From positions 450 to 64,449 of the forward strand of contig JADFYJ010000015.1 of the NCBI GenBank assembly GCA_015233115.1: a stretch of DNA of 64,000 nucleotides, given 5' to 3'. The stretch is from Candidatus Omnitrophota bacterium. Its GTDB lineage: Bacteria; Omnitrophota; Gorgyraeia; Zapsychrales; Zapsychraceae. The position numbers were made by a program, and so were the translations under genes. Positions 121-63,700 of the stretch are shown in pieces (position 1 is the first letter of the stretch; every line of letters begins with the position of its first letter). The notes beneath the pieces are model-generated. The model was not told the origin of the DNA. It was given only the letters and a program-made list of their open reading frames with translations, and ran no database searches.

Positions 121-136
121 ACGAGCTCCTGATTTA

Positions 137-440
137 TAGTAACAGAGTAACCGACTAACCAAGTAACCGAGTAAAAGCAAACAAAAACAAAAGCTATAAA
201 AAATTAGATAATAACAGAGCAACCGAGTGACAGAGTAAAACAAAACAAAAAAAATAACCAAAAAACAATAAATTGAATTACTAACAAAAAAACCGGCTAA
301 AATTTTTATTATATAGTTTTACTGTCCGTTTCTCACTCAACGTTTTTTCTTGTCTATTTTCTCTCATCTATTTTTCAACAAATATTTTTCTCATAAATCG
401 CTTTTTCTCTGTTACTTGGTTACTCGGTTACTCTGTTACT
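137..440. repeat. Inverted-repeat-flanked intergenic element, family B (GTAACCGA octamer arms), copy 1
   Basis: Left arm gtaacagagtaaccgactaaccaagtaaccgag (139-176). Right arm aatcgctttttctctgttacttggttactcggttactctgttac (405-440) is its reverse complement. AT-rich core between them. The right arm supplies the TAA stop of metY. Confidence 0.7.
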
Positions 441-1731
441 TTTTTAAGGCTTGATCCAAATCTTCAATAATATCATCAATATTTTCCAGACCAATTGATA
501 GGCGGATAAAATCCGGCGATATGCCTGCGGCTTTTTGCTCATCCGCGCTTAATTGCTGATGCGTTGTGCTGGCCGGATGGATTGCCAAAGTTTTGGCATC
601 ACCAATATTAGCCAGATGAGAAATTAATCCTAAACCATCAATAAATTTCTTGCCAGCCTCAGCCCCACCTTTAACGCCGAACCCGACAATCGCGCCAGCT
701 CCCTTAGAAAGATATTTTTTCGTCTTGGAAAATTCTTGACTCGAAGATAAGCCCGGATATAAAACCCAGCTCACTTCCGGATGTTTCGAAAGATGCTCAG
801 CCACTTTTAACGCGTTTTCACAATGCCGCGGCATACGTAAATGCAAAGTTTCTAAACCCTGCAAAAATAAAAACGCGTTGAACGGAGATAAGGCTGGCCC
901 CAAATCACGCAAAAGCGTAACCCGTGCCTTAATGATATACGCGATATTCCCCATCGGCTTTAACGCTTCAACAAAATTGAGACCATGGTAACTCGCGTCG
1001 GCATCAGCGATCAATGGAAATTTGCCGTTGGTCCAGTCAAAGTTTCCTGAGTCCACAATAACTCCGCCGAGAGAAGTTCCATGCCCGCCGATAAATTTGG
1101 TGGCAGAATACACCACAATATCCGCGCCATAGGAGATCGGTTTTAACAAATAAGGGGAAACAGTATTATCAATAATCAAAGGGATACCATTTTTATGCGC
1201 GATTTTCGCTAATCCTTCAATATCCGTGACATTCAATTTCGGGTTACCGATCGATTCCGCGTATATCGCTTTCGTCTTGGGTGTGATCGCTTTTTCAAAA
1301 GCAGACAAATCTCCCGACGGCACAAAATTCACTTTAACCCCGAATTTTTTAAAAGTGTAATGAAACAAAGTATACGTTCCACCGTACAAATTATCCGCGG
1401 ACACGATTTCATCGCCATTCTGCGCAATGTTCAAAATGGCGAGCGTAATTGCCGCCGAACCGCTGGCTGTAGCCAATGCCCCGACACCGCCGTCAAGCGC
1501 GGCAACGCGTTTTTCCAAGACATCATTTGTCGGATTCATTAGCCTCGTATAAATATTTCCAAATTCTTTCAACGCGAACAAATTCGCCGCATGCTCCGAA
1601 TCTTTAAAAACGTAAGACGTTGTCTGATAAATCGGCACGGCGCGCGAACCGGTCGCAGGATCAGGCTCCTGACCCGCATGCAACAAAAGAGTCTCATCCC
1701 TTAATTTTTTTTCATCAAATTTTTTAGTCAT
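436..1731 (-). CDS. metY: O-acetylhomoserine/O-acetylserine sulfhydrylase (PLP-dependent)
   Basis: 431 aa. Cys/Met-metabolism PLP family with the [10 protein letters not shown] lysine motif. Typical MetY N-terminus [26 protein letters not shown]. Confidence 0.9.
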
Positions 1732-1743
1732 ATAAGCTCCACA

Positions 1744-2181
1744 TTAAATTGTATAATCCAATGGTTTTAATTTCTTATTGGCCATATTCACCATATCCGC
1801 CAAAGTATATTCTTCAAAAATTTTAGAAATCGATTGCGACACTTCTTTCCAAATCACCTGCGCAATGCATTCCCCGCTACGGCCGCATATAGCGTCATTA
1901 TCCACGCAATCGACCAAAACAATCGGCCCTTCCAGCGTGGATACGATGTCTTTCAATGTTATTTCTTTAGGAAATTTTGCCAGCATGTATCCGCCATGCG
2001 CGCCTCTCACCGTCGATACTAGCCCAGCATTCTTTAACGCAGGCACTAATTGCCATAGATATTTTTCAGAAATATTTTGACGCAGAGCAATATCCCGCAA
2101 TAAGATAGGGCCATGGCCAAAATTCATGGCCAAGTCCAGTAAAAACCGCAAACCATATCGCCCGCGAGTTGTAAGCTTCAT
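1744..2181 (-). CDS. Rrf2-family transcriptional regulator (IscR/CymR-like, three-Cys cluster)
   Basis: 145 aa. MKLTTRGRYGLR...HGGYMLAKFPKEITLKDIV wHTH. CVDNDAICGRSGEC cysteine triad. 12 nt upstream of metY, so cotranscription is likely. Confidence 0.85.
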   Translation of the reverse strand: MKLTTRGRYGLRFLLDLAMNFGHGPILLRDIALRQNISEKYLWQLVPALKNAGLVSTVRGAHGGYMLAKFPKEITLKDIVSTLEGPIVLVDCVDNDAICGRSGECIAQVIWKEVSQSISKIFEEYTLADMVNMANKKLKPLDYTI

Positions 2182-2288
2182 AATAAAATTTAAAAAAACA
2201 ACTGGAACTTAAGTTAATAGAAAAAATAGTTTATTTTCAATCTAAGATTTTATAGTAATAGTAAGAGCTTTTCAATGTAAATAAAGTA

Positions 2289-3098
2289 CTACGAGGAAAT
2301 GATAGAAATTCCATGTTTATTGGCAAGTTTAATCGTTCGCTCTCTATCGATGATGATAGTTTTTCCGGATTCAATGGCTAAGCAGCAACATTTAGATTTT
2401 ATCATGTTCTGAACAGTGCGTGGGCCAATGACCGGCACGTCAAAACGGGAATCTTGTTTGGGTTTGCTCATTTTAACCACTACCGCCCCGCGGCGCGAAA
2501 TATGTCCTCCCCGCAAAATTGTTTTATCTGTTCCTTCCATGGCTTCGATGGCTACAATCGCTTTTTCTTTAACAACGACCGTCTGCCCCACATCCATACC
2601 GCCCATTTGTTTTGCCAAATCCCGGCCAAAACCTATATCCGTCAATTCAGTTTGTGTTGGACCCCGGCGGGTCAAAGTCCCTTTAGGCGCCAAATAATCT
2701 TTGATTAAAGCCGTGGAATCCATGAGCGTCATTCCGTATTCGCTTAATTTATTTCCTATAGCTGAAAAAATAGTATCTGCCTTACGATCCGTCATAGTTT
2801 GAAATAATTTTTGAATTTCTTCGTCATAAGGCACGGAAGGATTAAATAAATTCTTTTGGCTGACTTGGCCAGCCATGATGACTTGTCTCACCCCACGGGA
2901 ACGGAGGTATTCAAAACTTTTTTTGAGGTCGCTCGCCCAAAACATTTGCAATTCATTGACAAAAAAACGCAGAAAAAAAGATGTATCGCCTTTGATCCCC
3001 ATGGCTACGACATGATATCCCTGGCTTCGAGCCTGCTGAGCGAATAAAATAGGGAATTGACCGTTGCCGGCAATAAGGCCAAGAATTTTTTCAGACAT
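2289..3098 (-). CDS. lpxI: UDP-2,3-diacylglucosamine pyrophosphatase LpxI (DUF1009)
   Basis: 269 aa. ILGLIAGNGQFPILFAQQARSQGYHVV N-terminus typical of LpxI. Last gene of the lpx cluster. Confidence 0.7.
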   Translation of the reverse strand: MSEKILGLIAGNGQFPILFAQQARSQGYHVVAMGIKGDTSFFLRFFVNELQMFWASDLKKSFEYLRSRGVRQVIMAGQVSQKNLFNPSVPYDEEIQKLFQTMTDRKADTIFSAIGNKLSEYGMTLMDSTALIKDYLAPKGTLTRRGPTQTELTDIGFGRDLAKQMGGMDVGQTVVVKEKAIVAIEAMEGTDKTILRGGHISRRGAVVVKMSKPKQDSRFDVPVIGPRTVQNMIKSKCCCLAIESGKTIIIDRERTIKLANKHGISIISS

Positions 3099-3258
3099 AA
3101 ATTACAACAAAGTTTATTAATTCACACTATAATTTTTTATGTTGTTTGCATTCACTACGGGTATACGATCCATGCTCAAACAGGCCTGACGGCGAACTGC
3201 GCGCGGACATATACCCTCCGTTCACACAAACAACGCTTATCTCAATTAAATCATTTTT

Positions 3259-3290
3259 TTCTACTTTGTACTCTGTACTTTTTCTTACTC
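3259..3290. repeat. Oligo-repeat arm, family D (GTACTNTG octamer), at the lpxA 3' flank
   Basis: ctactttgtactctgtactttttcttactc. Same motif as the arm at 62456-62490. Overlaps the lpxA C-terminal codons. Confidence 0.5.
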
Positions 3291-62770: not shown

Positions 62771-62771
62771 T

Positions 62772-63242
62772 TCAAGGTCTGGCAATTTTCATAATTTTAT
62801 AACGTAAAATTCCGGCCGGAACTTTAATGGTAAGTTCTTCACCGACAGCATGGCCCATCAACGCTTTCCCGATAGGAGAGGTCATGGACAATTTATTTTC
62901 TTCGTAATTAGACTCTTCCGGAGAAACCATCATATAATGGAGATCTTCCTTTGTATCCAAGTCCTTCAAGTCAACGATCGCGCCAATAAAAATTTTATCA
63001 GAAGGGATATTCTGGTCTTCCACAATCCTGACACTCATCAATCTTTCTTCCAACTCTGAAATCCGTGCCGCGTTATGCGCCTGGGCGTCTTTGGCCGCGT
63101 CATATTCCGCATTCTCTGAAATATCTCCTTGCAAACGGGCTTCTTCAATCGCGTGAGCAATTTTTAAACGCTCCGATTTTAAAGCTTCCAGTTCTGCCAT
63201 AAATTTATGATAACCAGCCCTGGTTAAATATACTTCTGCCAT
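62772..63242 (-). CDS. greA: Transcription elongation factor GreA
   Basis: 156 aa. N-terminal coiled coil with DISENAEYDAAKD. C-terminal FKBP-like domain. Confidence 0.9.
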   Translation of the reverse strand: MAEVYLTRAGYHKFMAELEALKSERLKIAHAIEEARLQGDISENAEYDAAKDAQAHNAARISELEERLMSVRIVEDQNIPSDKIFIGAIVDLKDLDTKEDLHYMMVSPEESNYEENKLSMTSPIGKALMGHAVGEELTIKVPAGILRYKIMKIARP

Positions 63243-63265
63243 TTCATCTTCTCCTTATTTGAACA

Positions 63266-63296
63266 GAAAAAAGCGCGAAGCAATTTCGCGCTTTTT
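63266..63296 (-). terminator. Rho-independent terminator downstream of the 63349-63582 gene
   Basis: aaaaagcgcgaagcaatttcgcgcttttt: a GC stem with a T-run on the minus strand (A-run on plus). Confidence 0.6.
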
Positions 63297-63348
63297 ACTG
63301 ATCTATCACCTATCTCTTCTCACATATCACATTACAAAATTTTAAAAA

Positions 63349-63582
63349 TTACATTTGACCTACGGCCTTTTGCATTAAAGGCAAAACAGCTTCAGTTTCA
63401 TCTTTAGTCATACGGCCTAATTTAGCAAACCGCCATTCACCTTCAGCTGTTTGATTTTCACGAGATAATTGCAATTTCTTAGCGCCTTCATTATAAGAAA
63501 AAACGCCGACTGTCACTCGGGTATCACCTAATTCAATAATCTCTTTAAATACTGACACATCTTTTGCTGGTTCGTAAGGCAT
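63349..63582 (-). CDS. Small hypothetical protein (possible PC4/YdbC-like fold)
   Basis: 77 aa. RVTVGVFSYNEGAKKLQLSRENQTAEGEWRFAKLGRMTKDE. Weak resemblance only. Confidence 0.35.
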   Translation of the reverse strand: MPYEPAKDVSVFKEIIELGDTRVTVGVFSYNEGAKKLQLSRENQTAEGEWRFAKLGRMTKDETEAVLPLMQKAVGQM

Positions 63583-63612
63583 GTTATTCTCCTTTATTGA
63601 TATTATATTTTC

Positions 63613-63700
63613 TGGTTGATAGTTGATGGTTTTTGGTTTTTAGAAAAATGTTTTATTTCAATAACCAACAACTAGCAACTAAAAACCACCAACCAAAAAC
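63613..63700. repeat. Family A element between ybaB and the downstream small gene
   Basis: tggttgatagttgatggtttttggtttttagaaaaatg...ataaccaacaactagcaactaaaaaccaccaaccaaaaacc. Confidence 0.75.

Follow-up and report, generated by a model that had tools for sequence, protein, structure and literature searches.

Inverted pairs of short tandem arrays in bacterial spacers are already known. Xanthomonas campestris and X. citri carry intergenic GGGAATC heptamers in inverted pairs, with 70–75 convergent array pairs able to form stem-loops; the G-rich strand is coding downstream of open reading frames (ORFs) and non-coding upstream of them in Xanthomonas and Nostoc alike, but inverted pairs are common only in Xanthomonas, not in Nostoc (Rehm et al. 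2015, PMC4692102). In the hmw 5′ untranslated region of Haemophilus influenzae, an (ATCTTTC)n hairpin is cleaved by RNase III and alters downstream expression (Rapun-Araiz et al. 2025, PMC12721329), and TAACTGA leader repeats occur in Beggiatoaceae, cyanobacteria and Bacteroidetes (MacGregor 2015, PMC4679880). Here we describe repeat-built inverted pairs in the spacers of a 64-kb chromosomal segment of a Candidatus Omnitrophota bacterium (contig JADFYJ010000015.1 of assembly GCA_015233115.1; “the window” denotes this whole stretch). What distinguishes them from the Xanthomonas pairs is the use of several units that are not of the G-quadruplex (G4) type, a box common to all families, loops that bear promoters, and the lack of the elements in the sister genome, L081 (GCA_015233195.1; such L-numbers are labels of the compared loci and genomes). 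Our preferred, though still tentative, reading is that the elements form a lineage-amplified superfamily of non-coding palindromic spacer elements, that is, DNA-level modules with RNA-level consequences.

The building block is a terminal module of ~40 nt, in which 4–6 imperfect tandem units of 7–9 nt are followed by an inner A-rich box, GAAAAAGCGAWT. On the coding strand, which is the minus strand for nearly all genes, a spacer reads stop codon, G/T-rich array, GAAAAAGCGAWT, AT-rich stretch, reverse-complement array, Shine-Dalgarno sequence and ATG. Two inverted modules of one family (A, B or C) occupy the gene-proximal edges of the spacer, one right after the upstream stop codon and the other 5–25 nt before the downstream ribosome-binding site, with the Shine-Dalgarno sequences outside the arms. 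We counted 13 arm pairs, every one family-matched and inverted; eight elements are long, their loops measuring 134–255 nt, five or six are plain hairpins whose loops measure ~10–35 nt, and ~7 arms are solo. An initial annotation of the window had proposed about 15 spacers with one layout and cores of 170–250 bp. The layout is present, but only the eight long elements have long AT-rich cores, which span 134–255 nt, and five or six of the regions are the simple hairpins. The long cores are 71–76% AT, and in six of seven A is enriched in the left half and T in the right, so that the whole element tends to be rod-like.

Each unit combines a fixed core with a variable tail (GGTTnnT in family A, GTAACnnA in B, GTATGTn in C). 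There are at least six unit families, of 7, 8 or 9 nt, and none has G-runs of three or more, which leaves the arms without the G3 runs of G-quadruplex potential. Four families had been proposed, to which E, a 9-mer (44732–44783), and F (63298–63335) have to be added. Family D had been taken for a paired octamer; it is a 7-mer whose two arms (3248–3279 and 62457–62487) match at 20 of 20 positions, lie 59 kb apart and are unpaired in cis. All 12 tabulated pairs, including every A and C pair, are G/T-first. The idea that the arms act as three-frame stop-codon traps was dropped, as it holds only for families B and F.

The resemblance to the Xanthomonas heptamers extends to tandem heptamer arrays of ~4 units in spacers near ORF ends, to a G-rich strand that is coding after genes and non-coding before genes, to convergent pairs, and to served genes of all functional classes. 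The descriptive features of intergenic long simple-sequence repeats with inverted pairs of the Xanthomonas type are all found here except the single G4 unit: Xanthomonas has one G-quadruplex-capable unit genome-wide, whereas the window has at least six units without G3 tracts. Also unlike in Xanthomonas, one subterminal box is common to all families and the loops are up to 255 nt long and can contain promoters; most of the Xanthomonas repeats keep their position between two species, whereas none of the elements occurs in the sister genome. As at hmw, heptamer repeats in a spacer form an arm of a long hairpin, and most predicted stems exceed the ~20 bp of near-continuous double-stranded RNA of the hmw type, given the transcription that we infer here; the arms are located between the ribosome-binding site and either a conserved promoter or the gene upstream. 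The hmw hairpin has one repeat arm of perfect, slippage-prone units at a single phase-variable virulence locus, whereas here both arms are arrays, the units are imperfect, and many loci with housekeeping genes are involved. The TAACTGA repeats are likewise short one-heptamer arrays, oriented to the downstream start codon and placed before genes of all classes, but they are direct repeats only, with one inverted case among 170 (PMC4679880), in contrast to the inverted, family-matched pairs of the window. They stand right next to the start codon, taking the place of a Shine-Dalgarno sequence; in the window this sequence is kept outside the array. The STRR heptamers of cyanobacteria are also short spacer heptamer arrays.

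Correia/NEMIS, ERIC, RUP and BOX are palindromic MITEs (miniature inverted-repeat transposable elements). Like these and the REP, BIME and REPIN sequences (REP features from PMC3733652), the window elements are dispersed hairpin-forming spacer repeats that lie mostly downstream of ORFs and differ in presence between relatives; members of that group are often transcribed and have been linked to mRNA stabilisation or RNase processing. Unlike in that group, the arms are direct tandem arrays rather than unique palindromes, a consistent GTAG/CGTC tag is lacking (GTAG stands at the inner end of C and D arms and is missing from A and B arms), inspection of the B and C flanks by eye revealed no target-site duplication, the cores are unconserved, and no RAYT or insertion-sequence partner was seen in the window. 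The 20–40-bp imperfect palindrome unit with an unpaired GTAG or CGTC tag that characterizes REP and REPIN is therefore not what we find. No Rfam family matched the elements, the only match in the window being the tRNA, which bears out the initial view that this is not a named element, and full-text literature searches returned no description of such elements in Omnitrophota.

With Tandem Repeats Finder (TRF), ~30 tracts with periods of 7, 8 or 9 nt were detected. When tracts of period 5–11 were merged, 26 of the resulting 28 lay in the non-coding 8.6% of the window (binomial p = 7 × 10−26). An independent inverted-repeat search recovered the arm pairs and bore out the earlier claim of inverted repeats, which proved to be true ones of ~25–45 nt: 41 nt at 93% complementarity in B1 (139–439), 37 nt at 86% in C1 (5465–5707), 33 nt at 88% in B2 (50020–50255), 34 nt at 85% between dnaB and bamA (9824–10143), 48 nt at 71% in C2 with the box included (11925–12226), 27 nt at 85% in B3 (59824–60094), 33 nt at 88% in the hisG/surA-like spacer (20959–21226), and 22 nt at 82% in the hairpin near 63.6 kb (63612–63701). 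The pairs were often found in several registers, as would be expected if arms are built of repeats. Arm–arm duplex energies ranged from −26 to −63 kcal/mol for most pairs, with z values of −2.4 to −11 relative to shuffled arms; the duplexes lay far below shuffled arms in 10 of 12, and the two weak ones were prs–L25 slices (z about −1). The whole-element folds gave z values of −8.2 for C1, −9.6 for B1 and −3.2 for bamA–ompH. Stems of 26–43 pairs are predicted for most elements, and of 19–21 for the two prs–L25 slices. In minimum-free-energy folds of read-through transcripts the distal arms were paired in all seven co-directional long elements, as the initial annotation had anticipated.

The subterminal motif, described earlier as common to all families, is real. 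Allowing up to one mismatch, GAAAAAGCGAWT occurs 13 times in the window against 3.3 expected, a count reached by none of 100 shuffles. Eight of the copies abut arms, and the five in coding sequence correspond to the chance level. Its complement, (ATT)CG(C/T)TTTT, stands before many 3′ arms, as ATTCGTTTTT in C2, as GCTTTT in B1 and B2, and as ATTCGTTTTTTCC in the prs–L25, hisG and surA-like copies, and the box therefore makes up the inner portion of the inverted repeat. The form GGAAAAAGCGAWT had no occurrence in 283 fetched loci of other genomes, which makes the box specific to this genome, and for this reason a GAAAAAGC-like loop in L004, a 63%-identical relative, was not relied upon. One module is identical at 39 of 40 positions at 10143–10103, after a stop codon, and at 21226–21186, in the leader of a plus-strand gene, which implies that it was copied and did not grow in place. 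Members of one family are non-homologous beyond the modules, the similarity being limited to the arms plus ~10–30 nt. Tandem duplication is seen at three scales, namely the 7–9-nt units, a 48–49-nt module in B2, and a whole 81-nt hairpin at prs–L25.

These duplications bring up the possibility that the elements are a neutral by-product of slippage-prone replication or repair, with long simple-sequence repeats expanding wherever selection permits, at the untranslated 3′ and 5′ edges of genes, and serving no purpose themselves. The existence of solo arms would fit, as would the absence of the elements from the sister genome and most relatives, the lack of strand bias and of element-specific compensation in the window, and the rank of heptamers as the commonest long simple-sequence repeat class in prokaryotes, as stated in the part of PMC4679880 that cites Mrazek 2007. 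However, independent expansions would not be expected to match in family and inverted orientation in every pair. Family matching was seen in 12 of 12 tabulated pairs, for which the chance is 6!3!3!/12! = 5 × 10−5 by our own arithmetic on family alone. Neither the one box common to all families nor the 39/40 identical module, which implies copying, is accounted for. Overall, we consider a neutral origin unlikely, although it deserves some weight.

Comparison with relatives shows that the elements were gained. The BamA protein encoded in the window is 100% identical to that of an Omnitrophica metagenome-assembled genome (MAG); the next match has 83% identity and all others at most 63%. L081, the closest genome, with the 83%-identical BamA, is collinear with the window from hisG to lpxI, with conserved protein termini, and it is without every element, including at five orthologous junctions. 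The dnaB–bamA spacer is 371 nt in the window, 76 nt in L081 and 48 nt in the median of other Omnitrophota; the corresponding values are 140, 47 and 57 nt for bamA–ompH, 189, 24 and 23 nt for prs–L25, 257, −7 (an overlap) and 6 nt for lpxD–lpxC, and 186, 3 and −2 nt for lpxA–lpxI. Since L081 lacks the elements and spacers typical of the phylum are short, the window state is derived. This is the presence/absence difference between close relatives that the initial annotation had suggested looking for. An assembly artefact was ruled out because the genes flanking the elements are intact and collinear with L081.

Such a pattern is also what a non-autonomous transposon of the MITE or REPIN-like kind would produce, with the ~40-nt modules as terminal inverted repeats and a transposase encoded elsewhere. 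Inverted repeats of 22–48 nt with 71–93% complementarity are present, the differences from L081 at prs–L25 (~165 nt) and lpxD–lpxC are single blocks that resemble insertions, and near-identical modules recur at different loci. The rod-like elements, A-rich on the left and T-rich on the right in six of seven cores, the solo ends, and the recurrence of one unit family at two L004 loci would agree with it as well. The dnaB–bamA spacer speaks against this interpretation. L081 shares with it the −35/−10 promoter (29/32 identical) and the final 45 nt of the leader, and the arms lie in two separate blocks round the promoter, 179 nt upstream and ~112 nt downstream; consequently, the bamA promoter in the core is ancestral, the arms sit in two insertions, and the element is hard to reconcile with a single MITE insertion. 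Furthermore, the cores are non-homologous within a family, some copies have loops of only ~10–35 nt, no transposase or RAYT domain was found among the ORFs scanned in the 64 kb, and no target-site duplication was seen when the 10-nt outer flanks of B1–B3 and C1–C3 were compared by eye, a comparison short of a formal search. The classical MITE of the initial annotation was rejected on the lack of a visible target-site duplication, the lack of core homology and the ancestral promoter, and a transposon of any such kind appears doubtful.

Promoter-like sites in the sense direction (score of at least 9/12) were found in five of the eight long cores, in each case upstream of the 3′ arm. Back-to-back promoter-like sites occur in the divergent hisG/surA-like spacer, with one module in each leader. 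The arrays lie 30–133 nt downstream of a −10 hexamer or adjoin the upstream stop codon. In families A and C the distal module has little G and is rich in C and A, suggesting a leader without structure, and the B and D arms are not strongly skewed. Because 27–48-nt inverted repeats flank segments of 134–255 bp, of which five of eight carry a promoter-like site facing the downstream gene, we considered that the arms could be recombination sites that flip a promoter-bearing core. We regard such invertons as highly improbable: they would be serving housekeeping genes (bamA, lpxC, the L9 gene, hisG), in the sister genome the bamA promoter works armless, short-loop copies are unable to invert, three cores are promoterless, and the scanned ORFs of the window include no recombinase or invertase. 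Canonical terminators at the elements were also considered and dropped: a scan of positions 1–15000, which include seven elements, placed none at them, and the number of hits equalled the shuffle expectation. The tails after the 3′ arms, judged by eye, are mostly not U-runs, and only 63267–63296 is canonical.

To place these counts in a wider context, pairs of reverse-complement units at most 450 bp apart were sought with a TRF-based detector. It found 8 pairs in the 64-kb window, 5 in 0.94 Mb of Omnitrophota bamA loci and 3 in prs loci of diverse bacteria (1.35 Mb), the last being two in L004 and one in a Steroidobacteraceae MAG. A BLAST-based detector of tandem-arm hairpins was insensitive, with 3 in the window, and the TRF-based counts were retained. 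The hairpins of other genomes are made of unrelated units (CAGAGGA, GCGAAAA, CGTTTWCT, GTTAAATG, ACAAATK, ACGAGGG, GTTGTTTT), have short loops and often touch both stop and start codon. As in the window, L004 has one unit family at two loci. The L25–pth junction carries such hairpins in five cases (L113, L126, L143, L147 and L156). For the hairpins of these genomes, folding is better on the sense than on the antisense strand (p = 0.024), and in L126 GGTTAGCC units pair with AACTGGCA units via G·U, the arms differing in unit, which points to pairing at the RNA level and separate amplification of each arm. A Heliobacteriaceae MAG (L075) has a 10-mer version at L25–pth, and in an Acidobacteria MAG (L042, about 3200–3320 and the L25–pth spacer) a heptamer/decamer tract or hairpin follows right after the L25 stop, as it does in L075; the junction seems prone to such structures across phyla.

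A scan of viral contigs gave two matches to the A pattern, which look coincidental, and, for the B pattern, iteron-like GTAACC arrays in gut phages that probably share only the unit with family B. These gut-virome contigs of ~45 kb (L164, 1200–1430; also L166, L178 and L215) carry direct and inverted GTAACC arrays with 8–11-bp spacing around an AT-rich stretch just downstream of a 635-aa ORF that, judged by eye, looks helicase/primase-like; the region looks like an iteron-type origin or operator, and it had no match in an annotated phage collection. Arrays of this kind flanking an AT-rich stretch beside replication genes are one reason to ask if the window arrays could bind protein, the 7–8-bp units being operators of a cooperative binder whose arrays loop or roadblock the promoter between them. 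Ribbon-helix-helix (RHH) repressors such as omega (7-bp heptads) and MetJ (8-bp metboxes) would be the models. Their periods fit, as do the conserved core and variable tail of the units and a complementarity that holds at the family level only. Loops of 134–255 bp are also within the range of classical repression loops. However, the arrays lie at the spacer edges and not over the −35/−10 hexamers as RHH operators would, at least six unit families would need as many binders and yet have one box in common, short-loop copies lie inside promoterless operon junctions, and the arms of L126 pair via G·U with different units. No small DNA-binding gene other than a ybaB-like one is adjacent, and no RHH gene was found among the window ORFs. 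We therefore judge protein-binding arrays to be quite improbable.

The preferred reading, that of DNA-level modules with RNA-level consequences, rests on what is observed of anatomy, complementarity, restriction to spacers, gain relative to relatives and an ancestral promoter in one loop; the origin mechanism and every RNA-level effect are proposals. The modules would originate and multiply as DNA. Unit arrays would be created, and changed in length, by replication slippage, both sides would stay alike through template switching or gene conversion between inverted copies, and a trans-acting hairpin-specific enzyme is possibly involved. An RNA entering the spacer from outside would hold both modules and could form a stem of 26–43 bp that loops out the spacer, and this stem might serve as a substrate for a double-strand RNase or as a barrier to a 3′ exonuclease, giving neighbouring cistrons separate fates. 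An RNA that starts at an in-loop promoter would carry only the distal module as its leader. Short-loop copies within operons would be ordinary intercistronic stem-loops. Genes that were once tightly coupled, such as lpxD and lpxC, which overlap in the sister genome, would now be expressed from their own promoters and the read-through RNA processed.

Several observations weigh against this reading. The mean duplex energy was −36.7 kcal/mol for cognate arms, −36.8 for non-cognate arms of the same family and −14.0 across families; element-specific compensation was therefore dropped, as the two arms of an element fit no better than non-cognate arms of their family. Within the window, the sense strand showed no preference in stability over the antisense strand (8 of 12, p = 0.73) and no G·U bias (27 versus 21 counts). 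About seven arms are solo, the two outer modules of the divergent hisG/surA-like spacer would fall on different mRNAs, no promoter-like site at or above the threshold was found in the cores of B2, B3 and C3, so that a promoter in every core fails, and the shared box is given no role. The suggestion of the initial annotation that the elements are a built-in RNA structure fares accordingly: it is plausible, as the arms pair in the folds, and it is weakened by the equal cognate and non-cognate energies, the missing sense bias and the spacer divided between two mRNAs.

A different proposal, which we hold to be improbable, is that some activity installs family-coded inverted modules at spacer edges and that the brackets act as a two-way transcription insulator. 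The installer could be a hairpin-specific transposase or a templated addition of repeats at DNA ends. RNA from either flank would gain both arms and be cut or stopped, and RNA born in the spacer would have nothing but an unstructured C/A-rich leader. Thanks to the repeats in the arms, long-range pairing would be fast and tolerant of register, and the use of several families would keep neighbouring brackets from cross-pairing.

The window has ~40% GC and encodes mostly housekeeping functions, including bamA–ompH–lpxD–lpxC/fabZ–lpxA–lpxI, dnaB, the L9, S6 and L25 genes, ssb, pth, prs and glmU, together with tRNA-Gln, spoVG, ispE, hisG, greA, sensor kinases and one 3871-aa ORF. The last is a single ORF (23353–34968, minus strand) that overlaps the end of an opposite-strand PIN-domain gene. 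All catalogued elements and arms are on the minus strand except the divergent A-family element. B1 separates a Cys/Met pyridoxal-phosphate enzyme gene from the next gene (ATG at 120). Its stop codon (436–438) lies in the first unit of the 5′ module, (GTAACMRA)x4 plus GAAAAAGCGATT (395–439), its 3′ arm is at 139–178, an extra inner arm copy is at 211–240, and the loop is 221 nt. A stop codon inside the first repeat unit had been described as frequent and was found in only three cases, B1, B3 and C1. A solo D 5′ module, AGTACAGAGTACAAAGTAG plus GAAAAAAATGATTT (3248–3279), follows the lpxA stop without a partner in the spacer. The same lpxA–lpxI spacer (3099–3284) contains a separate, GC-richer palindrome of ~95 nt (gttgtttgtgtgaacggagggtatat ... 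cgtatacccgtagtgaatgcaaacaac), which is absent from the sister genome. C1, between lpxD and lpxC/fabZ, consists of the 5′ module (GTATGTG)n plus GAAAAACGATTT (5657–5707), a promoter-like TTGACT-17-TATATT (5553–5525) and a 3′ arm (5465–5500). The lpxC and fabZ sequences form one fused 437-aa ORF (4134–5447), and the same fusion is found in the sister genome.

The bamA–ompH junction has an A-family short hairpin (7276–7375), with the 5′ arm plus GGAAAAAACGAAAG at 7333–7375 and the 3′ arm, (CAACAAC)x6.9, at 7276–7323. The A-family long element that separates dnaB from bamA has a 5′ module (10103–10143) and a 3′ arm (9824–9859) that enclose the conserved promoter TTGACA-17-TATAAT (9942–9970) and an inner G/T arm (9875–9900). 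C2 is found downstream of ssb, immediately before the L9 gene, with the 5′ module at 12174–12226 and the 3′ arm, including ATTCGTTTTT, at 11925–11968; the gene upstream of it is probably rpsR, a name that comes from synteny with L081 only. At prs–L25, two tandem A-family short hairpins (14650–14813) repeat with an 81-nt period, each composed of a G/T arm, GGAAATATTCGTTTTTTCC and a C/A arm. A degenerate A-like hairpin (17560–17636), found as a self inverted match, lies just after the glmU stop. Beside tRNA-Gln (17012–17644) there are a small GIY-YIG nuclease ORF (17028–17282) and two identical 38-nt direct repeats; at this spot the sister genome (L081, 2774–3578) has a 23S-rRNA-intervening-sequence-protein gene instead, and the surroundings look like a variable islet at a tRNA. 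The A-family element that brackets the divergent hisG/surA-like spacer has its modules at 20959–20995 and 21186–21226, and an extra inner arm (21001–21040) creates a short hairpin in the hisG leader, with the back-to-back promoter-like sites in between. Between hisG and a TPR gene (19924–20061), a tiny ORF rich in Lys/Arg (MPCGKKRKKCKIRTHKRKKLRK...) shows conservation across three genomes (the window; L081, 359–523; L004, about 3385) and is uncalled in L081.

Farther along, a solo A-type C/A-rich arm (44214–44254) stands in the leader of the gene at 43788–44189. The spacer upstream of rmuC contains 2.8 copies of a 49-bp unit at 100% identity (43472–43607 / 43604–43757), which are bracketed by a GC-rich 28-nt inverted repeat (GGGGCGATC...GATCGCCC) unrelated to the A–F arms. 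The solo E 5′ module (44732–44783), of (GGTGRTAAA)-type 9-mers plus GAAAAAGCGATG, follows the stop of an ABC-F gene. Several ORF starts or ends run into arms. Another solo A-type C/A-rich arm (47484–47518), upstream of a pseudouridine synthase gene, overlaps the last codons of a SpoU-type methylase, the ORF of which reads through the arm (47481–47518) to its stop, the arm encoding the last ~11 residues. B2 has its 5′ module at 50196–50255 and its 3′ arm at 50020–50059, and the module on the 3′-arm side is tandemly duplicated with a 48–49-nt period (50043–50145). B3 has its 5′ module at 60051–60094, with a glycosyltransferase stop in the first unit, and its 3′ arm at 59824–59855. C3 (62576–62767), after greA, has arms at 62731–62767 (5′) and 62576–62609 (3′), and the solo D 3′ arm, (CTCTGTACTTTGTA)n, lies at 62457–62487 in the leader of a Gfo/Idh/MocA gene. 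The F arm, (GTGATAK)n (63298–63335), is directly followed by a canonical bidirectional intrinsic terminator, AAAAAGCGCGAA-attgc-TTCGCGCTTTTTT (63267–63296), as read from the sequence, the two together spanning 63267–63335. The 5′ half of this terminator resembles the GAAAAAGCGAWT box, which may derive from terminator half-sites. The A-family short hairpin at 63612–63701 is flanked by the ybaB-like gene and a 77-aa ORF.

Should the stems form and undergo processing, a streamlined bacterium would keep its ancestral operon order and yet give genes their own promoters, and the repeat hairpin cut by RNase III at hmw, the single case studied by experiment, would be extended to a genome-wide design. 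Spacers inflated five- to forty-fold relative to the sister genome matter for gene calling and for the assembly of MAGs. At L25–pth, hairpins of unrelated units occupy one junction in different Omnitrophota. Whatever their function, the elements are a clean natural example of long hairpins built and resized by tandem duplication.

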